Shown: piece after piece, positions 1 through 9,718 of the stretch
Position numbering within the stretch: the first letter of the stretch is position 1
How the letters are laid out: each line of letters opens with the position of its first letter
From: a virus
Taxonomy: Duplodnaviria > Heunggongvirae > Uroviricota > Caudoviricetes
Strand: one strand, 5' to 3'
DNA: 9,718 bases
IMG/VR virus record: IMGVR_UViG_2609459856_000010
Translations under genes and position numbers: made by a program
Notes under the pieces: model-generated
What the model was told of the DNA's origin: nothing
The model's database searches: none
Seen by the model: the letters and a program-made list of their open reading frames with translations, nothing else

Positions 1-240
1 CCATTAAAAAATCTTCCAAGTTCAGACGAGATGCTGACTTTAAGTTCCACAACTAATGCCTTGTCCCCGGACAGTATTGATGCCACTAATTCGTTAATTG
101 GTAATGATGATTACAACTGTCTGATTGAAGGAAATAAAAATAACAAACGAACGGCGACGGGGTTGAGTACCAGTATTGTCGGTGCAGCAGAGACACGCCC
201 ACGTAATATTTCATTTAATTACATTGTGAGGGCTGCATGA
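1..240 (+). CDS. Tail fiber protein, C-terminal variable (receptor-binding) part; gene starts upstream of the window
   Basis: Frame 1 is open from base 1 to the TGA at 238-240, so the listed ORF 31..240 is the tail of a longer gene. It sits directly upstream of, and overlaps (ATGA), a tail fiber assembly gene, the usual fiber/chaperone arrangement. AT-rich, as is typical of variable fiber tips. Confidence 0.6.
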   Translation, partial: PLKNLPSSDEMLTLSSTTNALSPDSIDATNSLIGNDDYNCLIEGNKNNKRTATGLSTSIVGAAETRPRNISFNYIVRAA

Positions 241-842
241 TGTATAACGCCATCTTAAATAGTAAATTTATTGCCACAAAGGCAGGAGAGATTACCGTTT
301 ATAACTATGACAGTGAGACACGGGAGTATATTTCTGCATCAACTGAATATCTTGCTGTGGGTGTCGGTATCCCTGCATATTCCTGTTTAGATGCTCCTGG
401 CACACATAAGGCTGGTTATGCAATCTGCCGTTCGGCAGATTTAAACTCATGGGAATATGTGCCAGACCATCGCGGTGAAGTTGTCTATAACACCGAAACG
501 GGAGAATCAAAAGAAATCACAGCTCCGGGTGATTACCCTGAAAATACAACCACTATCGTCCCGTTAACGCCATACGATAAATGGGATGGTGAGAAATGGG
601 TGACGGATACCGAGGCACAGCATAGCACCGCAGTAGAAGCGGCAGAAGCACAGCGCCAGTCGCTGATTGATGCTGCAATGGCTTCCATCAGTCTGATTCA
701 ACTGAAATTACAGGCCGGGCGGAAACTGACTCAGGCAGAAACAACCCGACTTAACGCCGTGCTGGATTACATTGACGCGGTGACGGCAACAGATACCAGC
801 ACCGCGCCGGATGTCATCTGGCCTGAACTGCCGGAGGCGTAG
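237..842 (+). CDS. Tail fiber assembly protein (Tfa / P2 gpG-like chaperone)
   Basis: 201-aa ORF coupled to the fiber gene by an ATGA overlap. The C-terminus carries the motif DTSTAPDVIWPELPE, which recurs in the convergent paralog at 814..1242. Family assignment is from recalled Tfa/gpG similarity. Confidence 0.85.
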   Translation: MMYNAILNSKFIATKAGEITVYNYDSETREYISASTEYLAVGVGIPAYSCLDAPGTHKAGYAICRSADLNSWEYVPDHRGEVVYNTETGESKEITAPGDYPENTTTIVPLTPYDKWDGEKWVTDTEAQHSTAVEAAEAQRQSLIDAAMASISLIQLKLQAGRKLTQAETTRLNAVLDYIDAVTATDTSTAPDVIWPELPEA

Positions 843-1242
843 GCCATTCAATATCGGGTGCTGTTGACGTATCAACACGCATCAGCAGCACACGGTATTT
901 CTTCCATTGGGTGAGAGTTGTAGCTTCTTCATCAGTTGCGATATCAGCATCAACAGCATCCTGACGCCAGGATATTTCACTGTCAGCTTTTTCCCGTAAT
1001 TGGGATTTTTTAACTTCAGCAATAGCTATTAATTCCTTTTTGGTCGGCTGAGGAATATCTATCAGTGCTGGTTTTCCATTCAGTGTTCCAATCTGTTTTC
1101 CTGGTGGAATATCCATAAATAACTTTTTATGTTCTTCCTCACTGACTATTACACCATCATCAGGCCACAGACCTGATGCCTCAAATTTTTCTTTCTCCGA
1201 TATGGGGAAAAAGCCATTTGCTTTAGCGCTCCATACGTACAT
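814..1242 (-). CDS. Tail fiber assembly protein, alternative cassette (Tfa')
   Basis: 142-aa ORF ending VDTSTAPDIEWPTPP, the same C-terminal motif as the + strand Tfa. It is convergent with that gene and immediately downstream of the minus-strand fiber cassette (4-nt spacing). Confidence 0.8.
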   Translation of the reverse strand: MYVWSAKANGFFPISEKEKFEASGLWPDDGVIVSEEEHKKLFMDIPPGKQIGTLNGKPALIDIPQPTKKELIAIAEVKKSQLREKADSEISWRQDAVDADIATDEEATTLTQWKKYRVLLMRVDTSTAPDIEWPTPPAVQAR

Positions 1243-1243
1243 A

Positions 1244-1579
1244 TCAATACCCCACCGCTATAATGTCCACATTAAATCCCCCGGGACCTGCCTGCCAGAT
1301 GCTGGCCCCTGTTAATGATTTTGTTTGATGAACAACCGCCACATTTGCTGGCGATTGTGTTTCAGTTGTTGCAGTACCGATATCATTCCAGTTAATTGAG
1401 ATTGAATAGTTCGTTGTTGTAAACGACCGGGGGAAAGTTATGTGTCTTACATTGGTGCCGACAGGAAATCCAAGATAAACACGCTGAATTATCATTCCTC
1501 CAGGTAACATAACCCAGTTAGCACCTTCTCCAAAACCAACGTTTATGAAAATGCAGAGATAACGGGTAACTGGCATCAT
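1244..1579 (-). CDS. Alternative tail fiber C-terminal cassette (Sv'-like), silent in this orientation; only the part below the crossover site (about 1244..1525) is likely real fiber coding
   Basis: Minus-strand ORF followed directly by Tfa'. The hix-like site at 1526-1551 lies inside the ORF and encodes IFINVGFGE. The ATG at 1579 is probably fortuitous; after inversion this cassette would be fused to the constant part of the fiber gene upstream of the window. Confidence 0.6.
   Translation of the reverse strand: MMPVTRYLCIFINVGFGEGANWVMLPGGMIIQRVYLGFPVGTNVRHITFPRSFTTTNYSISINWNDIGTATTETQSPANVAVVHQTKSLTGASIWQAGPGGFNVDIIAVGY
1526..1551. other. 26-bp hix/gix-like crossover site for the DNA invertase (right boundary of the invertible fiber segment)
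   Basis: TTCTCCAAAACCAACGTTTATGAAAA at 1526-1551. It has the AAAACC-NN-GGTTT-like dyad architecture of hix/gix sites and matches Salmonella hixL, as I recall it (TTCTTGAAAACCAAGGTTTTTGATAA), at about 22 of 26 positions. It lies 55 bp upstream of the invertase start, as gixR does relative to gin in Mu. Confidence 0.65.
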
Positions 1580-1606
1580 CTCCGGTTTTTATTCAGGGGG
1601 ATGCTC

Positions 1607-2206
1607 ATGCTTATTGGCTATGTACGCGTGTCAACAAATGACCAGAACACGGAATTGCAGCGTAACGCGCTGGAGTGCGCAGGATGTGAGCTGATTTTTG
1701 AGGACAAAATCAGCGGCACGAAGTCCGACCGACCGGGACTGAAAAAACTGCTCAGAACATTATCAGCAGGTGACACTCTGGTAGTCTGGAAGCTGGACAG
1801 GCTGGGGCGTAGTATGCGGCATCTGGTCATTCTGGTTGAGGAACTGCGCGAACGCGGCGTTAATTTTCGCAGCCTGACAGATGCTATTGATACCAGCACG
1901 CCGATGGGGCGTTTCTTTTTTCACGTCATGGGGGCTTTAGCAGAAATGGAACGTGAATTAATTGTTGAGAGAACACTGGCCGGACTGGCAGCTGCACGCG
2001 AACAGGGACGCATTGGCGGACGTCGCCCGAAGTTGACAAAAGAACAACACGAGCAAATAGCGAGGCTGATTAAAAACGGTCATGACAGGAAACAACTGGC
2101 GATCATTTACGACATCGGCATATCGACGATTTATCGTTATCACCCTGTAGGCGATATACAGGCTGAAGAAACAACCAGGCAGACTCAGGAAAATGAAAAC
2201 CGCTAA
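1607..2206 (+). CDS. Serine recombinase DNA invertase (Hin/Gin/Cin/Pin family)
   Basis: The N-terminus MLIGYVRVSTNDQNTELQRNAL contains the catalytic-serine motif, followed by VVWKLDRLGRSM, GRFFFHVMGALAEMERELI and a C-terminal HTH (GRRPKLT...ISTIYRY), all typical of this family. Start is placed at the ATG at 1607 because the GGGGG Shine-Dalgarno at 1596-1600 is too close to the ATG at 1601. Confidence 0.9.
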   Translation: MLIGYVRVSTNDQNTELQRNALECAGCELIFEDKISGTKSDRPGLKKLLRTLSAGDTLVVWKLDRLGRSMRHLVILVEELRERGVNFRSLTDAIDTSTPMGRFFFHVMGALAEMERELIVERTLAGLAAAREQGRIGGRRPKLTKEQHEQIARLIKNGHDRKQLAIIYDIGISTIYRYHPVGDIQAEETTRQTQENENR

Positions 2207-2225
2207 TCTGACCATTAGCGGTTTT
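2196..2225. terminator. Bidirectional intrinsic-terminator-like hairpin between the convergent invertase and U genes
   Basis: Perfect 12-bp inverted repeat AAAACCGCTAAT (2196-2207) / ATTAGCGGTTTT (2214-2225) with a 6-nt loop. It has an A-tract on one side and a T-tract on the other, so it forms a U-tailed hairpin on either strand. It overlaps the invertase stop codon (2204-2206). Confidence 0.45.
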
Positions 2226-2232
2226 GCGTTAA

Positions 2233-2721
2233 TCAAAACAGCCCTTTAACGGAGCTGGCCGCGCTGTTAAGGGATGATGTGACCTTATCTTTGAAGCCGG
2301 ACAGCATATCACTGAACGATGAGGATTGCAGGCGCTCCCGCAAATCCTCATCACAGCGTTCAAGAGTCAGTGAAAACTCTATCTTTTTCGCCTTGCCGTA
2401 GCGATCAAACTCGGAGCGGGTCGTACTTGTGTCAGTCAGAACATACATGCCGTAAATCTGCCCGACGCCATCAATCAGAGGCCAGGGGCGTCCTGTATAC
2501 GCCTGCGTGGTCAGCAGCGAAAGCGACACTTCGCCACCTGTAATTTCAGGATAAAGCACGCCAGAAAGCACGATGCGATCATCACCTGCACCGATATACT
2601 GCCAGCTTGCTGAGCGGTTAACGCGTTCATTTTTCACATGCCGCCAGCTTTTGTTTTGCTGTAACTGCTGATGCGGCAATGTGCGCAGCTCAAAAACAAA
2701 CATGCCGTAGATCATCATCAT
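2233..2721 (-). CDS. U: Phage tail protein U (P2 gpU-like)
   Basis: The ORF starts MMMIYGMFVFEL and contains GGEVSLSLL, a P2 gpU-like pattern from memory. It lies directly downstream of the tape measure gene. Start is chosen at the ATG at 2721 (GAGGAG at 2730-2735, about 8 nt spacing); the ORF is open to 2727. Confidence 0.8.
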   Translation of the reverse strand: MMMIYGMFVFELRTLPHQQLQQNKSWRHVKNERVNRSASWQYIGAGDDRIVLSGVLYPEITGGEVSLSLLTTQAYTGRPWPLIDGVGQIYGMYVLTDTSTTRSEFDRYGKAKKIEFSLTLERCDEDLRERLQSSSFSDMLSGFKDKVTSSLNSAASSVKGLF

Positions 2722-2733
2722 GGCCATGACTCC

Positions 2734-5541
2734 TCAATCTTTATCGTAAAAACTGCCACGTCCGGCACGAGCACGCCGTTCCACCTCTGCCCTGACCATT
2801 TCACCGACCAGTTTCGCCAGTTCGCGGGGATTCTGCGTAACAACGTTATGCAGATGAACATGAATTTCACCACCAAATCCGGAGGCAACAGGCTCCCGGT
2901 TACGGGAAGTTACAGGAACTGATGCCACAGGAGATCGTATGGCCTCCGCCACCGGGCGGGAGCTGGCCGCAACAACAGGGACCAGCGCCGGAGGCAGCGG
3001 AGCCGGGACCACGGGGGTGATATTAATTGCGGGGGCAGGCTTACTGACCTGCGCAATCTTCCGCTCCTGCCACTCCCCACGAACAGCAAGTGCGCGGGGC
3101 AGGTTTTTAAAGACAATATCGCCGGGGCCAATGCGTTTTTTCGTCTCCTCAACCAGCTTACCTGTGTTATCAGCAATTTTGCTGAGTCTGCGCAGCGTAC
3201 CGGTATTGCTGTCTGTGAGCGGTTTGTTGTCTTTGGGGTTATCACCTCCGGTGCCATTGCCATTTTCTACAGGCTTCGGCGGATTGATTTTCGCCAGGTC
3301 CCCCTGAAGAAAGGCAACCTTGTCCTGAAGAATGGCCGCACGCTGTGCGTCTTCGATTTTCTTTCTCGCCCTTTCCGCTTCATCCGGAAGAACACCTAGT
3401 TTTTCAAGTATCCACGCCAGCGTATCCAGCAACATTTTTGCAGGTGTCAGAACAAGCTGTAACGCGCCACCAAGAACGTTACCGAATATCTCGCCAGCAC
3501 TGGTACATTTATCCAGCGTTTCCTTGCTGGACTCCATCGGTGACAGCAGCGATTTAAACCAGTTAAACACCTGGCTGATCCCGATTCCGATTGCGTCAAA
3601 AACAGGACCAAACCGTTCAAAGGTTTCGCGCAACGGGGTCAGCATTTCCATAATCCCGCTGAACACCCCGGCAAAAAATGCCCTGATGGGATCCCAGTAT
3701 TTCCAGATGAGAATGGCAGCTCCGGCAAGCGCAGCCACGATAAGACCAACCGGACTGAACAGCGCCCCGATAGCGCCTCCCAGCAAAGAAACAGAACCCG
3801 TCACCATTCCCCACAACGCAGGCAACACCCTGATGACATTCATTGACCGGGTAAGAATGTCAAAACCAAGACGCAGGGTGGCCAGCTTCCCGTAAAGCAC
3901 CCCAATAACCAGCGACAACGAGCCAATCGTTGCAGTCATTGCCAGCAACGCACCGCCTGCTATCAGTAGCTGGCGCGTCAGTACCGGATGGGCCTGCGCC
4001 AGCGAGGTGATTTTTTCAAGCACCCGCGTGAGCCACTGCGTGACAGAACGCAGCGGACCGTCAACCAGATCACTGATGCGAATACGAAGACCTTCCCATG
4101 CGCTGTCGAGATTTTTCAGGTCCCCATCAAGATTATCGGCCATTACTTTTGCAACGCGATCGGCCTCTCCCCTTGCCCCCTGCAATTCTCTGGTCAGTTT
4201 TTGCAGCTCTCCTGAACCAGCCGCCGCAACAAGCGTCTGCAAACCAACGAACGCCTCTTCTCCGGCGATGTCCTTGAAGAAGGAGACCTGGTCCACCTGT
4301 CCGTATTTTTGTGTCGCCTTATAGAGATCAAGCAGCACATCCTCCATCGGGCGCATTTTGCCTCTGGCGTCAGCAACTGACACCCCCAGCTCTTTCAGTG
4401 CATCAGCCGCAGCTTTTGGCGGTGATGCAAGGCGGGACAGACTTGCGCGCATGGCCGTGCCAGCATCGCTTCCGCGAAGACCATTATTGGCAAGCATCCC
4501 GGCCATGGCCGCCGCTTCTTCAAGACTGATACCAAGTTTTGCGGCAACCGGACCGGTATACTTCATGGTTTCGCCCAGCGCGCGTAAATCAGTATTGGTC
4601 CGGGTGAATGCCGCTGTCAGCGTATCGCCAACCCGGTCCATTTGATCGGCTGTCAGGTTGAACTGTGTGAGGATATTGGAGCCTATATCCGCCGTCTCGC
4701 CGAGTTCGACGCCACCTGCCAGCGCCATATTAAGAACACCGGGCAATGCGGCCTGAATGGCCTGCGGAGTAAAACCAGCCATTGCCAGAAAGCTCTGCCC
4801 ACTGGCGGCATCACTCGCAGTAAACTGTGTTTCAGAGCCAAGTTTTAACGCCTGCTCACGCAGCGCCTTAAACTGCGGGCTGTTTTTGTCGATTCGCGTC
4901 AGTGCCTGAACGCGGGACATCTCTTTGCCGAACCCGATCGCAGGCTGCAAAAAACGCCCGGCAGCATAGCCGCCCGCCGCTGCCGCACCAATTGCCAGCG
5001 CACCACCTGTTTTCAGTTTTCCCGCTGTTTCCTGCGCGCGCGAATACCGCTCACGCGCCCGCGTTACACGCGCAAGCGCCTGCCGTTCGCGTTCAAGCTG
5101 GTTGTTGTACTGTTCGGTGCGTCTGATGGCCTGCTGGATGGTGTTATCGCTACCTGTCAGGGAAATGCCGTGGCGTTTCAGCTCTCCGCCAAGTTCCCGC
5201 ATTTTCTGAATTTCCCGTGTGCGCGATTCATTCAGGCGTTCAAGCCGGGTGCTTAACTGCTGCATCAGCTTTTGTTGTTTTTCGCTGAGCACTGTACCCG
5301 TGCGTTGTAACTGATTAAGGGCGTTAAGCTGGCGTCGTGCTTTCACGATGCCCGCATCCGCTTTACTGACAGCGTCACGGGCGCGCTCAAATGAACGCGC
5401 CTGACGCTCGAGATTTTTGATCGCCCCCTGCGTTCGCTGGATGGAGTCACCAAACTGCCCCATCAGGCGGCGGGCGTTTTCGGCAGGCCGGGTCAGCCTG
5501 TCAACGGCGCTGAAAGCGACCCGGATATCAAGAGTCTTCAT
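2734..5541 (-). CDS. T: Tail tape measure protein (P2 gpT-like)
   Basis: About 935 aa. Charged, coiled-coil-like N-terminal region rich in R/Q/E, Gly/Ala-rich hydrophobic central segments, and a Pro/Val-rich C-terminal region. It sits between E/E' and U. Start is uncertain: GTG 5577, ATG 5550 or ATG 5541, the last having a GGGAA motif upstream. Confidence 0.9.
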   Translation of the reverse strand: MKTLDIRVAFSAVDRLTRPAENARRLMGQFGDSIQRTQGAIKNLERQARSFERARDAVSKADAGIVKARRQLNALNQLQRTGTVLSEKQQKLMQQLSTRLERLNESRTREIQKMRELGGELKRHGISLTGSDNTIQQAIRRTEQYNNQLERERQALARVTRARERYSRAQETAGKLKTGGALAIGAAAAGGYAAGRFLQPAIGFGKEMSRVQALTRIDKNSPQFKALREQALKLGSETQFTASDAASGQSFLAMAGFTPQAIQAALPGVLNMALAGGVELGETADIGSNILTQFNLTADQMDRVGDTLTAAFTRTNTDLRALGETMKYTGPVAAKLGISLEEAAAMAGMLANNGLRGSDAGTAMRASLSRLASPPKAAADALKELGVSVADARGKMRPMEDVLLDLYKATQKYGQVDQVSFFKDIAGEEAFVGLQTLVAAAGSGELQKLTRELQGARGEADRVAKVMADNLDGDLKNLDSAWEGLRIRISDLVDGPLRSVTQWLTRVLEKITSLAQAHPVLTRQLLIAGGALLAMTATIGSLSLVIGVLYGKLATLRLGFDILTRSMNVIRVLPALWGMVTGSVSLLGGAIGALFSPVGLIVAALAGAAILIWKYWDPIRAFFAGVFSGIMEMLTPLRETFERFGPVFDAIGIGISQVFNWFKSLLSPMESSKETLDKCTSAGEIFGNVLGGALQLVLTPAKMLLDTLAWILEKLGVLPDEAERARKKIEDAQRAAILQDKVAFLQGDLAKINPPKPVENGNGTGGDNPKDNKPLTDSNTGTLRRLSKIADNTGKLVEETKKRIGPGDIVFKNLPRALAVRGEWQERKIAQVSKPAPAINITPVVPAPLPPALVPVVAASSRPVAEAIRSPVASVPVTSRNREPVASGFGGEIHVHLHNVVTQNPRELAKLVGEMVRAEVERRARAGRGSFYDKD

Positions 5542-5794
5542 TGTCTGCATTCCCGCTGCGAAGTGCCGCCCGCTCACGCCAACTAACCACTTCGCCGGGC
5601 GTCATCATGAAGATTTCGGCGGGCGACCAGTTAAAAATGGCGGCGATATCTGCCACCAGATCTTCGATGTGCTCAAAGCACACCAAGGTGATTACGCTGC
5701 CGTCTCCTGCACGCTCTTCGCGCCAGAGTCTGGCTCGCTCATAAAATTTACAGCCACAGCGCACAACTGAATAAAATCGCGTGACGACATTTTT
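5528..5794 (-). CDS. E' extension: -1 frame segment producing the gpE+E' tail assembly chaperone fusion by programmed frameshift
   Basis: The -1 frame relative to E opens exactly inside the A7 run (the -1 frame TAA is at 5797-5795) and stays open to 5528, overlapping the start of T. This matches the E/E'/T arrangement of P2 as I recall it. Confidence 0.6.
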   Translation of the reverse strand, partial: KNVVTRFYSVVRCGCKFYERARLWREERAGDGSVITLVCFEHIEDLVADIAAIFNWSPAEIFMMTPGEVVSWRERAALRSGNADNEDS

Positions 5795-6066
5795 TTAATC
5801 ATCACTTCATCCAGTCGTGGCGAGGTCACGCGAGGCAACAGCGTGAACATGGTATCCGCTTTCAGATTCAGCACATCAGACAGCGACAGACCACGCAGGG
5901 ATCCAGCCTGTTCAATAGCCCCGGTGATCTCCACATACGTGATTTTTTCGCCACCACGCTCAATTGGTCGAGTCAGTTTTACGCCACGTTCGACAGCCAT
6001 ATCCTCACCTGCCGTCACATCATCCGCCACGGTGTTATTCCGGGTTTCAGTATCGATGTCTTTCAT
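5692..6066 (-). CDS. E: Tail assembly chaperone gpE (P2 E-like)
   Basis: 124-aa ORF between the tube and tape measure genes, with Shine-Dalgarno AAAGGAG upstream of the ATG at 6066. It contains the slippery run at codons 90-92 (I-K-K). Confidence 0.8.
   Translation of the reverse strand: MKDIDTETRNNTVADDVTAGEDMAVERGVKLTRPIERGGEKITYVEITGAIEQAGSLRGLSLSDVLNLKADTMFTLLPRVTSPRLDEVMIKKMSSRDFIQLCAVAVNFMSEPDSGAKSVQETAA
5790..5796 (-). promoter_or_regulatory. Candidate -1 ribosomal frameshift slippery run (A7 in mRNA sense) for E to E'
   Basis: The mRNA reads AUU AAA AAA AUG in the E frame. The overlapping -1 ORF becomes open at this run. Homopolymeric A runs are known slippery sequences. Confidence 0.5.
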
Positions 6067-6121
6067 CAGTTTTCTCCTTTTCAGTCAGAGGCGACGCACT
6101 GCGCCGCCTGCATATTACTTA

Positions 6122-6634
6122 TCAGCCAAGCCCGAGCGCGGAACGGATACGGTCAGGCACAATGTCCTTGCCGTCCTTCCGGTAAATGAAGTTCAGCAGG
6201 TCAATCTCCCACAACGGGCGATCGTTAACACTCAGCTTGTAGTAGGTGTTTTTAATGGCGTAAGTGTGTGATGTGGCTTCGCCCTGTTTGGCTTCCCCCA
6301 TATCAATTTCCGTCACACGTCCGCGCATTTCGACTTCATACAGGTCGCTTTCTGCATCGGTGTAGTATTCACCCGCAAAACGCAGCAGCGTGCCGTCAAT
6401 CGTGCCGCCATACTTAAGGAACAGCTCACGAACTGCGCCCCCCATGACAAAGCTCGCATCAAGCGCGGAGTCGTCCAGACCGAGATCAATACTTACCGCA
6501 CCCATCATGCCACCACCCCGGTAGCTGTCGGTTTTGCGCGTCAGCTTAGGTAGAGTGACGGACGTCACCTTACCCACTTCGTTTTCACCATCCACAAACA
6601 GCGTAAAAAAGCGAAGATGTTTTGGCACAGCCAT
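6122..6634 (-). CDS. FII: Tail tube protein (P2 FII-like)
   Basis: 170-aa ORF immediately downstream of the sheath gene, start overlapping the sheath stop. Size and position fit P2 FII. Confidence 0.9.
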   Translation of the reverse strand: MAVPKHLRFFTLFVDGENEVGKVTSVTLPKLTRKTDSYRGGGMMGAVSIDLGLDDSALDASFVMGGAVRELFLKYGGTIDGTLLRFAGEYYTDAESDLYEVEMRGRVTEIDMGEAKQGEATSHTYAIKNTYYKLSVNDRPLWEIDLLNFIYRKDGKDIVPDRIRSALGLG

Positions 6635-7818
6635 CAGGCACCTCCCAGCACCGCAAATGCGGGTTCAAAGTATTCATCAGTAAACGTCTGGTAAAGCTCC
6701 ATGTCTTCCAGCGGGGGAACAGGCGTATATTTGTAGCGAATACGCACACGCCCCTGACGTAAATCCGTGGTGCTGTTATCCACCACGTCATACCAGCACT
6801 CCGCGCCAATCAGTTTCCCGGCAGTAACCAGTGAATCCAGTTTTGCCCTGATGGCACTGATAACATCCTTCACGTTCGCAGGCGTCAGTGGACTGTCGAT
6901 GGTTTCAAACTGCGCTTCCGCAATTGAATCAGCCAGCACCTGTGCGGTTCGGGTATACACCTCAAAGATGTAGGCGTTCGTTTCCGGGGTGCGGTTGCCC
7001 CAGAAGCGGAACCCGTTGCGACGAATAATGGTCGTGATTTCTTTGTTGTTGAGGCTGTTGGCATCACTGTCTTCGGCCTGCAACGACCAGAACACATGCC
7101 TGGACATCCCCAGCACATTTTTAACCGGAACGTTGGACAGCGATTTGTGCCAGCCCTGCTCATGGTCAATGTACGCACGAAGGCCGCACGCATAGGCAGG
7201 CGCGGGGAACGTTTCGTTTTTGCCACTTTTCGGGTTGTAGGCGATGAAGTCCGGCCATAAGAGCATCACCTCACGTTCGTTGAATTTCTGGCGGTAGGTA
7301 ATCGCCTCAGCCATCGTGTTACAGCCGTGACATGAGGCATACACAAACGCGCGCAGTTTACCCGCAATCACGCACAGGGATTTTGTTACCGCCTCCGTGT
7401 CCAGCTCCGGCGCGGCCAGAATACGCGGACGGTATCCGATGCTTTCATCCTGCTCTGCAACAAGCAGCGCATACATCCCCGTATAGCTGCCGTCAGATTC
7501 AGAACCACCGATAACCAGTTGATCCTGCGTTTTTCCGTCTTCTTCTTTGTGTTCAGCCACGCGAACGACGATCACCTTTGTGCTCACCTGGTCTGCGATG
7601 GCCTTAAGCGCACGATAAAGCGTCCCCGTTGTTCCGCATTTTCCCAGCACGTCATTGACGCGGGTCAGCAGTGTGGGCTTGTTCAGCGGGAACAGCTCCG
7701 CATCCGCATCATCCGCCGTTGCCACGATACCGATAACACTGGAATCAACATCATTAATCGCTGTTACCAGGTCGGTACTTTCCGTAACACGGGCACCATG
7801 AAAACGAGTTTCACTCAT
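6634..7818 (-). CDS. FI: Contractile tail sheath protein (P2 FI-like)
   Basis: 394-aa ORF starting MSETRFHGARVTE, first gene of the minus-strand block, with Shine-Dalgarno AAGGGG about 8 nt upstream of the ATG at 7818-7816. Size and sequence are sheath-like. Confidence 0.9.
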   Translation of the reverse strand: MSETRFHGARVTESTDLVTAINDVDSSVIGIVATADDADAELFPLNKPTLLTRVNDVLGKCGTTGTLYRALKAIADQVSTKVIVVRVAEHKEEDGKTQDQLVIGGSESDGSYTGMYALLVAEQDESIGYRPRILAAPELDTEAVTKSLCVIAGKLRAFVYASCHGCNTMAEAITYRQKFNEREVMLLWPDFIAYNPKSGKNETFPAPAYACGLRAYIDHEQGWHKSLSNVPVKNVLGMSRHVFWSLQAEDSDANSLNNKEITTIIRRNGFRFWGNRTPETNAYIFEVYTRTAQVLADSIAEAQFETIDSPLTPANVKDVISAIRAKLDSLVTAGKLIGAECWYDVVDNSTTDLRQGRVRIRYKYTPVPPLEDMELYQTFTDEYFEPAFAVLGGA

Positions 7819-7974
7819 AGCTTCAGCCCCTTGTATCCGTTAAATGATTCGGCAACAATCATCACCCACCACGCGCGTAATCTCCCCCCTGCGCCGTTCT
7901 CCCGCCACGGCGACAACAAAAAGCAGTAACCCCCTCCGCACGCACATGCGACCATGCTGCACAGGGAGGGAAAG

Positions 7975-9084
7975 ATGACCGACACCACCATGCAATTGCT
8001 CAGTCAGGGCACAGACCCCGTGAAAATGCCGGATTTTGATATTCTCGTGGAGGGGGAAACGCTGTCCGGCGTGGCAGAGCGCCTGATGAGCCTGTCACTG
8101 ACCGACAACCGGGGATTTGAAGCGGACCAGCTCACCATCACGCTGGATGATGCGGATGGTCAGTTGCAGCTACCGCCACGGGGCGCGCGCCTGACGGTTC
8201 TCATTGGCTGGAAAGGAGAACCGCTGACAGAAAAAGGCACTTACATTGTTGATGAAATTGCTCATGAAGGACCGCCCGACAGACTGACCATTTCAGCCAG
8301 AAGCGCAGATTTTCGGGATGAATTTAACGTCAAGCGCGAAGTATCCTGGCATGATGTGACCGTTGAACGCGTGGTGTCTGCAATTGCTCACCGATACGGC
8401 CTGAAACCGCAAATCAGCGAAATGCTGATGGATATTGAAATCGACCACGCCGACCAGACCGAAGAAAGCGACATGTCCTTCCTTACGCGCATGGCGGAAA
8501 TGCTGGGCGCAATCACCACGGTAAAAAGCGGCAATCTGTTATTCATCATGCCAGGTGGTGGCGTGAACGCACAGGGCCAGCCGTTGCCCTCGTTCGCCAT
8601 TACACGCAGCAGCGGCGATCGCCATCAGTTCCGTATTGCTGACCGCGAGGCGTATACGGGGGTACGCGCCTACTGGCTTGATCTTAATTACGGGAAAAAG
8701 AAAAAAGTCAGCGTAAAACGCCGTAAACCGCCAAAACCCAAAAAGGAGAAAAGCAGCAGCCGTGAAGGTGATTATATGGAAGGCGCGGAAGGCAATGTGT
8801 TTGTGTTACGCAAGACTTATCAGAACGAGCAGGCAGCAAGACGCGCAGCGGCGGCAAAGTGGCAGCAGCTACAACGCGGAGCCGCAGCGTTCTCCATCAC
8901 ACTGGCACGTGGACGCGCAGAACTCTACCCCGAAATGCATGGCACGGTAACAGGATTTAAAAGCGAGATTGATAATCAGGACTGGATTATTGCAAAAGCC
9001 GAGCACACCATTGATAACAGCGGCTTTACCACGCAGCTTGAGCTTGAGGCAAAAATCCCGGAATGGATAGCAGAAACAGACTGA
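7975..9084 (+). CDS. D: Phage late control / tail protein D (P2 gpD-like)
   Basis: 369 aa from the ATG at 7975, preceded by GGGAGGG; the ORF is open from 7954. Central lysine-rich stretch (KKKKVSVKRRKPPKPKKEK) and overall gpD-like sequence. Followed by ogr, as in P2. Confidence 0.85.
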   Translation: MTDTTMQLLSQGTDPVKMPDFDILVEGETLSGVAERLMSLSLTDNRGFEADQLTITLDDADGQLQLPPRGARLTVLIGWKGEPLTEKGTYIVDEIAHEGPPDRLTISARSADFRDEFNVKREVSWHDVTVERVVSAIAHRYGLKPQISEMLMDIEIDHADQTEESDMSFLTRMAEMLGAITTVKSGNLLFIMPGGGVNAQGQPLPSFAITRSSGDRHQFRIADREAYTGVRAYWLDLNYGKKKKVSVKRRKPPKPKKEKSSSREGDYMEGAEGNVFVLRKTYQNEQAARRAAAAKWQQLQRGAAAFSITLARGRAELYPEMHGTVTGFKSEIDNQDWIIAKAEHTIDNSGFTTQLELEAKIPEWIAETD

Positions 9085-9126
9085 GCAACTTAGAATAGCG
9101 GCAGCACCACGTTAAGGGAGGTCGCT

Positions 9127-9387
9127 ATGTTCCGTTGTCCGCTTTGTGGCGCATCTGCCCGTATCCGCACCAGTCGTCCGGAAAATGATTCAAACACCGT
9201 GCGGCAAAAGTATTACCAGTGTAACAACCTGGAATGCGGCGTATGCTTCTCAACACTGGAAGCTTTCCATAAATTCACATCGAAACACGCCTCCGGCGTT
9301 CACTCATCAGAAGGTATCCCGTGGCATGAGCTGCCAGCTTCACACAGGGGAAACAATCAGATGAGTTTGCCTTTATCTCAGAATTAA
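9127..9387 (+). CDS. ogr: Ogr/Delta-family zinc-finger late transcription activator
   Basis: 86 aa starting MFRCPLCGASARIRTSR, with Cys-X2-Cys ... Cys-X4-Cys (CPLC ... CNNLEC), characteristic of P2 Ogr. Shine-Dalgarno GGGAGG is 5 nt upstream. Confidence 0.85.
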   Translation: MFRCPLCGASARIRTSRPENDSNTVRQKYYQCNNLECGVCFSTLEAFHKFTSKHASGVHSSEGIPWHELPASHRGNNQMSLPLSQN

Positions 9388-9547
9388 CAGGCAGAATTGC
9401 CGGAGTAACAAAAAAGCGATAGATTACGCGCGGGTGCCTTTCGGCTGATGGTCGGAGGGAATACCCGAAGGCCAGATGTGGAAAGGCCCCGGAAAACATC
9501 TCTGTTTAACCGAGGCCCTAACCGCATTACCTTAGCAAGTGATAGGT

Positions 9548-9577
9548 TAGCGCCTCCCTGAAAAAGGAGCAAGCGCT
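9548..9577 (+). promoter_or_regulatory. Possible Shine-Dalgarno-sequestering hairpin in the hok-like leader
   Basis: AGCGC (9548-9552) can pair with GCGCT (9573-9577), and CTCC (9554-9557) with the GGAG of the Shine-Dalgarno (9566-9569), enclosing the ribosome binding site up to the ATG. By-eye prediction only. Confidence 0.25.
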
Positions 9578-9718
9578 ATGTCGCAAAAATCGCTTACGGC
9601 CATCACGTTCTGCGTGACGGCAATCCTCATCATCTGGATGCTGCACGGTTCGCTGTGCGAAATACGGATGAGCTTCTGGGGAGCGGAGTTTGCGGCGTTC
9701 TTACAGTGTAAGCAGTAA
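9578..9718 (+). CDS. Hok/Gef-family type I toxin (small membrane peptide), 46 aa
   Basis: ATG at 9578 with AAGGAG 8 nt upstream; the stop is at 9716-9718. Not in the supplied ORF track because it is short. Translation: MSQKSLTAITFCVTAILIIWMLHGSLCEIRMSFWGAEFAAFLQCKQ. It has an N-terminal transmembrane helix followed by SLCEIR-x6-E-x-AAF, which aligns with the conserved SLCEIRYRDGHREVAAF core of Hok as I recall it. Confidence 0.6.
   Translation: MSQKSLTAITFCVTAILIIWMLHGSLCEIRMSFWGAEFAAFLQCKQ

Follow-up and report, generated by a model that had tools for sequence, protein, structure and literature searches.

The window, by which we mean the whole 9,718-nucleotide stretch analysed (bases 1-9718 of JNMN01000004.1), opens on a compact group of tail-fibre and recombinase genes. 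Its bases 1-2206 very probably comprise the recombinase gene and the right-hand two thirds of a Pin-type invertible tail-fibre segment. The remainder is missing because the source contig stops within the switch: base 1 is the contig end and lies about 299 nt inside the segment, so that no upstream extension of the window is possible, and neither Sc, the constant fibre part, nor the left crossover site falls within the window or the contig. The features to which we refer are these:

1-240, plus strand: Sv, the end of the plus-strand variable fibre exon (last 79 codons and stop; the frame is open from base 1 and closes with TGA, 238-240)
237-842, plus strand: tfa, TfaE-like chaperone paired with Sv, 200-201 aa (Caudo_TAP, E 9e-32)
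814-1242, minus strand: tfa', second, convergent chaperone, paired with Sv', 142 aa (Caudo_TAP, E 7e-33)
1244-1579, minus strand: Sv', the cassette adjoining the invertase (Gp53-like_C, E 5e-6)
1526-1551: right crossover site, 26 bp, TTCTCCAAAACC AA CGTTTATGAAAA, with the core dinucleotide AA at 1538-1539
1607-2206 (ORF from 1601), plus strand: serine DNA invertase of Pin/Gin type, 199 aa (Resolvase, E 2e-51; HTH_7, E 2e-12)
1628-1691: putative Fis-dependent recombinational enhancer at the 5' end of the invertase gene, with two G-N13-C cores
2196-2225: hairpin (12-pair stem, then a T run) where the invertase gene converges with gpU
9127-9387: ogr

The two cassettes converge, and in each the fibre C-terminus precedes a Caudo_TAP chaperone of its own, the arrangement known from invertible tail-fibre switches. 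An earlier, sequence-only reading of this DNA had described a fibre end plus Tfa on one strand, Tfa' plus a second cassette on the other, and then an invertase, and the open reading frames and their Pfam families fall at the coordinates it gave. Sv is a collar-type fibre tip with a type-specific end; its Pfam match (S_tail_recep_bd) is weak (E 2e-4, under the gathering score), and relatives have full-length fibre proteins with an identical C-terminus. In the window orientation Sv' has no constant part joined to it: the alternative C-terminus takes up 97 codons, which begin at the crossover (1537) and descend to the stop at 1244, and the codons upstream of the site, at 1540-1579, form a non-fibre leader. 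The peptide GFGEGANWVMLPGG... of Sv' is the C-terminus of a 373-aa fibre in the genome GF8. When Sv and Sv' were compared, nothing was found in common except the peptide encoded by the site, as the claim that the two tips are unrelated had implied.

The chaperones likewise differ from one another. Tfa is 90.5% identical to TfaE of e14, and its similarity to Tfa' is confined to the C-terminal 64 aa (36% identity). The 3' end of tfa' overlaps tfa by 29 bp, and in genomes that carry the segment flipped it is tfa' that is co-oriented with the fibre gene.

The invertase probably starts at 1607, a start favoured because the ATG at 1601 abuts a GGGGG Shine-Dalgarno sequence. Its product matches the Gin structures 4M6F and 3UJ3 in the PDB at E 6e-92 to about 1e-91, and gamma-delta resolvase far more weakly (E 2e-30 vs. 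6e-92 for Gin). The catalytic Ser9 aligns with the residue mutated to alanine (S9A) in 3UJ3, conservation extends to the DRLGRS motif and the E-helix, and identity is 84% to e14 PinE and 73% to Mu Gin; judged by these alignments, the enzyme belongs to the Gin/Pin group, in line with the Hin/Gin-family assignment made previously. The identical protein occurs in 53 blocks of a public assembly collection, from which 24 contigs were read. A crude scan of positions 1-2400 found no sigma-70-like promoter.

Within the 5' part of the invertase gene lie two candidate Fis-binding cores, GTGTCAACAAATGAC (1628-1642) and GCGCAGGATGTGAGC (1677-1691), which span 64 bp and stand about 90 bp from the centre of the crossover site. 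The cores were chosen by their resemblance to the hin sequence. In an alignment, the region corresponds to the 5' end of Mu gin; since this is coding sequence, such conservation proves little. For Hin, the enhancer is 65 bp long and lies about 100 bp from hix (PMC3798978), and by this analogy 1628-1691 may serve as a Fis-dependent enhancer. The hairpin at 2196-2225 is probably a bidirectional terminator that closes the module; a search against Rfam returned no RNA family match anywhere in the window.

Crossover sites and the host prophage

Translated on the minus strand, the right site keeps the reading frame and gives I-F-I-N-V-G-F-G-E, residues 10-18 of the 1244-1579 open reading frame; the proposal that it is embedded in the frame of the silent cassette is correct. 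Mu gixR, which stands at an equal distance from its invertase start, can be aligned with it column for column, and it is identical to the right site of e14 at 25 of 26 bases; its sequence marks it as a pix/gix-type crossover site. The 26-mer is unique in the window even when 3 mismatches are allowed (chance expectation, 0.00), and no second or third crossover site was found in the window, either with the 26-mer (exact or with up to 3 mismatches) or with a degenerate core. The left site lies outside the window, as had been supposed. A multi-site shufflon was also considered; because 1526-1551 is the sole site in the window, we rejected it.

The relatives indicate where the partner should be. 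In contigs L013-L017, which encode the identical invertase protein and whose right-hand flank is the same P88-like backbone (97.5-98.8% identical), the left site reads TTCTC(G/T)CATACC TT GGTTTGGGAGAA; it occurs in L001 and L002 as well, and a left site with core TT is present in every relative whose contig extends far enough. Judged from these relatives, the partner is expected at about -311 to -286 relative to base 1 (approximately 300 bp upstream), about 1.84 kb from the right site and inside gene H, and was presumably retained in the source strain. The sequence-only reading had placed it within roughly 100 bp of base 1, which is too near; it had also put the plus-strand variable region at 80 codons, a figure that holds for the portion in the window, whereas the full variable part has 178 codons.

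We are highly confident that the prophage carrying the segment is P88-like (P2 family, Peduoviridae) and that its host is E. coli. According to the Pfam families of the called genes, the window (L018 among our contigs) contains the P2-type tail genes, namely U, tape measure, E/E', tube, sheath, D and Ogr, and its positions 1608-9718 are 92-94% identical to phages P88, P884B11, 500465-2 and Shae_phiSM, which places it in the P2 family. The operon from sheath to gpU runs on the minus strand, which is not the case in P2. An aberrant large inversion of this operon was rejected: the same arrangement is found in P88, P884B11, 500465-2 and many E. coli prophages, and there are no matching inverted repeats on its flanks.

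Inversion in close relatives

Two sibling pairs of complete E. coli genomes, GF75/GF8 and 571/613, carry a segment 97% identical to that of the window, and within each pair its orientation is opposite. Base-level comparison shows GF75 and GF8 to be identical over 6 kb apart from one inversion, itself with 0 mismatches, between the two sites, and the boundary of this inversion falls at the right crossover site. The fibre is 454 aa long in one state and 373 aa in the other, fused in frame at ...LAYL-G, and the chaperone is swapped; strains 571 and 613 differ by the matching swap at the level of annotated proteins. The expectation that inversion fuses the alternative C-terminus to the constant part and exchanges the chaperone is therefore borne out in both pairs. 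Inversion with in-frame fusion is real in these 97%-identical relatives, and it is in them, not in the source strain, that the mechanism is shown. Among complete E. coli genomes generally, at least 22 have the segment oriented as in the window and at least 9 have it flipped.

Three independent Logan contigs, each of 1838 nt and 99.7-99.9% identical to window positions 1-1539, run from the core TT to the core AA, stopping exactly at ...AAACCAA. These limits are the graph branch points expected from reads that include both orientations, and two cassette copies residing in different elements of one genome could also yield them. A further Logan contig, L005, was considered as a flipped form of the window prophage and rejected: it matches L004 at 100% identity, and L004 is another element, e14-like, where the same cassette stands in the opposite state beside an invertase of its own.

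How the switch would work, and its alternatives

In the model that we favour, the tail-fibre gene H has a constant 5' part (Sc) that can be joined to either of two 3' cassettes, Sv-Tfa and Sv'-Tfa', which lie on opposite strands. The invertase would bind the site at 1526-1551 and its inverted partner about 1.84 kb away in gene H, and would be helped to cut both sites, much as Hin and Gin are, by an enhancer that binds Fis within the 5' end of its own gene; cleavage at the central TT/AA dinucleotide, followed by rotation and religation, would leave the segment flipped. Both sites are in frame (CTT-GGT and GTT-GGT), and either orientation should therefore yield a complete fibre, with a collar-type tip of 178 aa (...LAYL-GLGEGSALP...) in state 1 and a gp53-like tip of 97 aa (...LAYL-GFGEGANWVMLPGG...) in state 2, the matching chaperone being encoded directly downstream of the tip in each. 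Because the tip sequences are unrelated, the two states probably differ in adsorption, and hence receptor, specificity, and a population of lysogens would release virions with two presumed receptor specificities.

It might be argued that the switch is a frozen relic in the source strain, where the fibre gene or the left site could have been broken just upstream of base 1, by an IS for example, leaving no functional inversion or none that affects virions. IS elements and other repeats often end contigs, and this contig stops within Sv, 299 nt from the expected left site, whereas a graph broken by heterogeneity alone would end at a crossover point; e14 is itself a defective prophage with a pseudogene for stfE, and one relative, GPEC1189, has an IS5 inside tfa'. 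The position of that IS5, however, differs from base 1, and it is the sole IS5 found in the relatives, which provide no precedent for an insertion at base 1. Against a relic also stand the intact open reading frames of the invertase, both chaperones and both tips, the completeness of the flanking tail genes in the window, and the occurrence of the left site in every relative that has the identical invertase protein and a sufficiently long contig; in addition, further Pin-family invertases encoded elsewhere in a genome can supply the activity in trans (PMC12529663). On balance we consider a relic unlikely.

A functional switch could also serve mainly the lysogen, if the fibre-derived protein of one orientation masked outer-membrane receptors and so blocked superinfecting phages. 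P2-family late genes are normally silent in the lysogen, being under Ogr control, and the ogr gene is present at 9127-9387; moreover, the cassettes are part of an apparently complete P2-family tail operon, and the tip sequences are unlike those of e14. These features make such a role extremely unlikely in our view, despite a precedent in e14, where inversion of the P segment by PinQ is reported to make StfE2, a protein that blocks T2 adsorption (PMC12529663), and although the window module is that segment's nearest relative, with identities of 90.5% between Tfa and TfaE, 57% between Sv and StfE and 84% between the invertase and PinE. The broader proposal that the segment, besides diversifying virions, would act as a recombinase-triggered host defence, in which the fibre product of one state masks receptors and other Pin-family invertases flip the segment in trans, is very unlikely as well.

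Read as a switch that diversifies the tail fibres of virions, the locus has consequences mainly for annotation. The 'gp53-like domain-containing protein' ORF of relatives (1244-1579 here) is then an alternative fibre-gene exon that goes unexpressed, and both the length of the fibre gene and the identity of the chaperone in such prophages depend on the switch state that the assembly happened to catch. The switch also accounts for the tendency of draft assemblies to break at this locus. Host-range prediction and phage engineering should take both tips of the prophage into account; beyond correct annotation, the importance of the finding is small.

Comparison with known systems

The switch is of a known kind, represented by the e14 P segment, the G segment of Mu and the C segment of P1, and inversion in P2-like prophages has already been published. 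The inversion of fibre cassettes by Pin, Gin and Cin has been textbook knowledge since the 1980s. The C segment of P1 with Cin, and p15B with Min, have invertases of the same subfamily, 26-bp sites and the same Fis/enhancer logic, Min being a multi-site, shufflon-like system; Hin flips a promoter and not coding cassettes. Salmonella Hin shares the subfamily, the 26-bp sites and the Fis/enhancer logic (PMC3798978).

The Mu G segment has the same Sc/Sv split, convergent S-U and U'-S' cassettes, and an invertase right after the right site; Gin is 73% identical, and the Mu site and invertase start align position for position with those of the window. It differs in its gix core (GA/TC vs. AA/TT here), in its size (3 kb) and in its chaperones, which have just 27-43% identity to those of the window over partial alignments.

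The P2-like prophages of EPEC E2348/69 and P88/Xuanwuvirus belong to the same family as the window prophage, and their fibre region likewise has gene H on one side and the tail sheath/tube operon on the other. Sequencing has revealed co-existing orientations in P2-like prophages and in e14, with PCR in addition for the e14 locus (Goldberg et al. 2014, PMC4272514). One EPEC E2348/69 locus has three repeats and four variants, whereas only a two-state switch is seen in the window. The backbone of P88 is 92-93% identical to window positions 1608-9718, but its module is Mu-like (gix-type, with a Gin-like 5' half), in contrast to the Pin-type module of the window; the P88 paper does not mention inversion (PMC5285337).

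The sequence-only reading had matched the locus to Mu G, P1 C and e14 P together, and the architecture agrees with this; the closest system is specifically the Pin/P segment of e14 rather than Mu G or P1 C. In E. coli K-12, e14 has the gene order and strands seen in the window (stfP/ycfK-tfaP, tfaE-stfE, pinE), and to the identities in invertase (84%), TfaE (90.5%), StfE vs. Sv (57%) and right site (25/26) can be added identical C-termini of TfaP and Tfa' (...APDIEWPTPPAVQAR), a segment of about 1.8 kb and a TT/AA core, as in the window module. The two differ in that e14 is defective, with stfE a pseudogene, whereas the window module resides in a P88-like P2-family prophage whose tail operon is full. 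The two also have different tips, the end of Sv being type-specific and the gp53-like Sv' having only the site-encoded peptide in common with StfP, and the C-terminal third of the invertase is unlike that of PinE (199 aa here vs. 184 aa). For this closest counterpart, the e14 P segment, inversion has been demonstrated experimentally (PMC4272514; PMC12529663).

Layout of the segment and its crossover sites

The arrangement of genes that the sequence-only reading had described as an invertible tail-fibre switch, with two alternative fibre tips (Sv and Sv') and their matched chaperones (Tfa and Tfa') beside an invertase, was recovered by ORF listing, and the assignments are backed by Pfam.

Features of the window (coordinates, strand, description)
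1 to TGA 238-240, plus: Sv fibre frame, open from base 1 (ORF listing, first 3 kb read)
237-842, plus: Tfa, 201-aa ORF (Pfam Caudo_TAP, E 9e-32)
814-1242, minus: Tfa', 142-aa ORF (Pfam Caudo_TAP, E 7e-33)
1244-1579, minus: Sv' cassette, 111-aa ORF (Pfam Gp53-like fibre C-terminus, E 5e-6)
1601/1607-2206, plus: invertase, 199/201-aa ORF (Pfam Resolvase, E 2e-51; HTH_7, E 2e-12)
Rest of window, minus: gpU, tape measure, E/E', tube and sheath (P2-family tail region)
After the minus-strand tail genes, plus: gpD, Ogr and hok-like ORF (P2-family region)

Pfam also matched the plus-strand Sv fragment, below threshold, to the receptor-binding domain of the T4 short fibre (E 2e-4). The genes tfa and tfa' converge, with an overlap of 29 bp at their 3' ends (814-842). 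The C-terminal peptides that they encode, ...WPELPEA and ...WPTPPAVQAR, recur unchanged in e14 TfaE and TfaP, so that the cassettes, otherwise variable, meet at a conserved joint in the middle of the segment.

The right crossover site, TTCTCCAAAACC-AA-CGTTTATGAAAA at 1526-1551, occurs once in the window with up to three mismatches allowed (chance expectation 0.00), and neither this 26-mer search nor an additional one found a further crossover site in the window. Its alignment with Mu gixR runs column by column, at an equal distance from the invertase start, and a single base separates it from its right-hand counterpart in the e14 P segment. Its minus strand (ATT TTC ATA AAC GTT GGT TTT GGA GAA) reads IFINVGFGE, residues 10-18 of the 111-aa ORF, and the site is therefore in frame within the silent cassette, as had been proposed.

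The left site lies outside both contig and window. The window matches the first 9718 bases of the JNMN01000004.1 locus (range 1-10206; assembly GCA_000700365.1) at 100%; because the identity begins at base 1 of JNMN01000004.1, window base 1 is the contig end, which falls 299 nt inside the invertible segment and away from the crossover site. E. coli 602687 matches window 1-1992 at 97% identity, and its best inverted repeat, TTCTCGCATACC-TT-GGTTTGGGAGAA, lies within the fibre gene, 286-311 bp before the equivalent of window base 1. A left site of the form TTCTC(G/T)CATACC TT GGTTTGGGAGAA is present in every relative with an identical invertase protein that reaches far enough (L013-L017). Three Logan contigs (public assembly-graph contigs, 1838 nt each), all with an identical Tfa protein and with 99.7-99.9% identity to window 1-1539, start TTGGTTTGGGAGAAGG and finish CCTTCTCCAAAACCAA; these ends place the core TT 298-299 nt upstream of window base 1. 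The variable part on the plus strand thus amounts to 178 codons, versus about 110 under the earlier expectation of a partner within roughly 100 bp of base 1, a distance that E. coli 602687, L013-L017 and the Logan contigs show to be off by about 200 bp.

Inversion in sibling genomes

A flipped version of the locus was built and searched against complete E. coli genomes: At least nine carry it across no less than 80% of its length, and in at least 22 the orientation is that of the window. GF75 and GF8, chicken-meat isolates with matching chromosomal coordinates, are identical across the 6 kb compared, save between the two sites, where the sequence is an exact reverse complement with no mismatches. 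The fibre gene of GF75 encodes 454 aa (...GLLAYL-GLGEGSALPIGVPVPWPS..., terminus ...ETRPRNISFNYIVRAA) and is followed by a 200-aa Tfa; that of GF8 encodes 373 aa (...GLLAYL-GFGEGANWVMLPGGMIIQRVY..., terminus ...DIIAVGY) and is followed by the 142-aa Tfa'. Strains 571 and 613 differ by the same fibre and chaperone swap, as judged from their annotated proteins, and the two sibling pairs are decisive for real inversion. The predicted in-frame fusion of the alternative C-terminus, together with the exchange of chaperones, is directly seen in GF75/GF8; the demonstration is on a segment copy 97% identical to that of the window, in relatives, with the source strain standing apart.

Because the k=31 graph of the Logan contigs branches at either end right on the core dinucleotide, the reads hold two different outer flanks. 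These boundaries fit a mixed-orientation culture and are supporting evidence, not proof, because two cassette copies in different elements of one genome give the same result. Published work documents co-existing orientations in e14 as well as in P2-like EPEC prophages (PMC4272514).

A full-length Sv from an identical contig, when compared with Sv', had only the crossover-site peptide in common with it and aligned nowhere else, in agreement with the claim that the tips are unrelated. Likeness between Tfa and Tfa' is limited to the C-terminal 64 aa (36% identity). That the tips confer two receptor specificities is a reasonable inference from these sequences. In E. coli GPEC1189 (L024, 2314-3807), an IS5 lies inside tfa' and splits the chaperone of the gp53-like tip, such that this copy of the switch would yield a chaperone-less fibre in one orientation.

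A frozen relic (a switch incomplete in the source strain), the main uncertainty, strikes us as very unlikely. It draws on the contig break, and since that break is away from the crossover point, something else stopped the assembler. The cause is possibly a repeat common to another fibre cassette, in that the upstream collar-domain part is about 90% identical to e14 stfE, with homology ending 66-106 nt short of base 1; the break might also be due to an insertion sequence, although the IS5 in the relative's segment sits at another position. Still more improbable is a role of the switch in host defence, as in the StfE2 report for e14 (PMC12529663), for which the one line of support here is homology. 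The original observation of an invertible switch was correct, and its interpretation is supported in all but the distance to the partner site.

The invertase and a mosaic module

Against crystal structures of Mu Gin the invertase scores E about 1e-91, and against gamma-delta resolvase about 1e-30. Alignment to the Gin structures shows that the DRLGRS motif and E-helix are kept and that the nucleophile Ser9 is present (the aligned position in 3UJ3 is S9A). Because the ATG at 1601 abuts a GGGGG Shine-Dalgarno sequence, translation most likely starts at 1607, in agreement with Gin, PinE and RefSeq calls in relatives. The enzyme shares 84% identity with e14 PinE and 73% with Gin; Tfa and TfaE agree at 90.5%, and Tfa' ends in the same 15 residues as TfaP. 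By its invertase, site and chaperones, the module is therefore specifically of the e14 Pin type.

Inversion by Hin-family enzymes depends on an enhancer of 65 bp, bounded by two Fis sites and usually situated about 100 bp away from one of the crossover sites (PMC3798978). In the window, a 64-bp span that begins about 90 bp away from the centre of the right site is bounded by two G-N13-C cores (1628-1642 and 1677-1691) and falls in a stretch aligning with the 5' end of gin; because this region is coding, its conservation proves little. Chosen by resemblance to the hin enhancer sequence, the two are putative enhancer cores.

Compared block by block (60 nt each), the first 300 nt of the invertase gene are of segment type (85-98% identical to L001, E. 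coli 602687), and the last 300 nt, HTH domain included, are of P88-like backbone type (93-100% to L002, a backbone relative). The module is mosaic, and segment, sites and 5' invertase half seem to have been exchanged as one cassette. Homology to same-backbone relatives (L013-L016 and L020; 98-99% identical) stops precisely where the right site has its outer edge (1525), and that to same-segment relatives of the L001 type at about 1992-1995, inside the invertase gene. The same cassette, 99.9-100% identical to window 1-1548, occurs in L004 (1122-3869; GCA_054663155.1, BAAFOM010000037.1) and L005, within a different, apparently degraded element, where a 184-aa PinE-like invertase and a LEM-3-type GIY-YIG gene adjoin it. 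Its state there is opposite: A short upstream ORF is joined to the gp53-like tip, and it is the collar tip that adjoins the invertase.

P88-like surroundings and known systems

The remaining window is 92-94% identical to phages P88, P884B11, 500465-2 and Shae_phiSM, and 94-98% identical to many E. coli prophages. Its sheath-tube-E/E'-tape measure-gpU operon (2233-7818) runs against the direction of the fibre genes and of gpD/ogr (7954-9387). In the P2-like L001, operon, fibre genes and gpD/ogr all share one orientation. A strain-specific rearrangement was rejected: The arrangement is kept in P88-like phages and is therefore a lineage trait. Within the operon, gpE (5692-6066) and a small GpE-family ORF (5528-5683) overlap the tape-measure start, presumably the usual P2 E/E+E' programmed-frameshift arrangement (5528-6066). 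Downstream of ogr lies a 46-aa hok/gef-family toxin ORF (9578-9718), annotated in relatives as MokW-like or Hok/Gef, at which Rfam reported no family (e.g., Sok, hok mRNA) at the gathering threshold.

Phage P88 shares its backbone genus with the window, but a Mu-type module replaces the Pin-type one, with gix-like sites of TC/GA core at 1849-1874 and 4920-4945, a Gin-like invertase 5' half and U/U'-like chaperones of 175-177 aa; the text of the P88 paper (PMC5285337) contains no word beginning 'invert' or 'inversion'. Near-identical copies of the present system occur in dozens of complete E. coli genomes, where they are routinely annotated (pinE, tfaE), and inversion in P2-like prophages is already published, so that the finding is an ordinary one. 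By every testable feature, i.e., those other than the left site in this contig, Fis dependence and host range, the system is a member of the Mu G / P1 C / e14 P inversion family.
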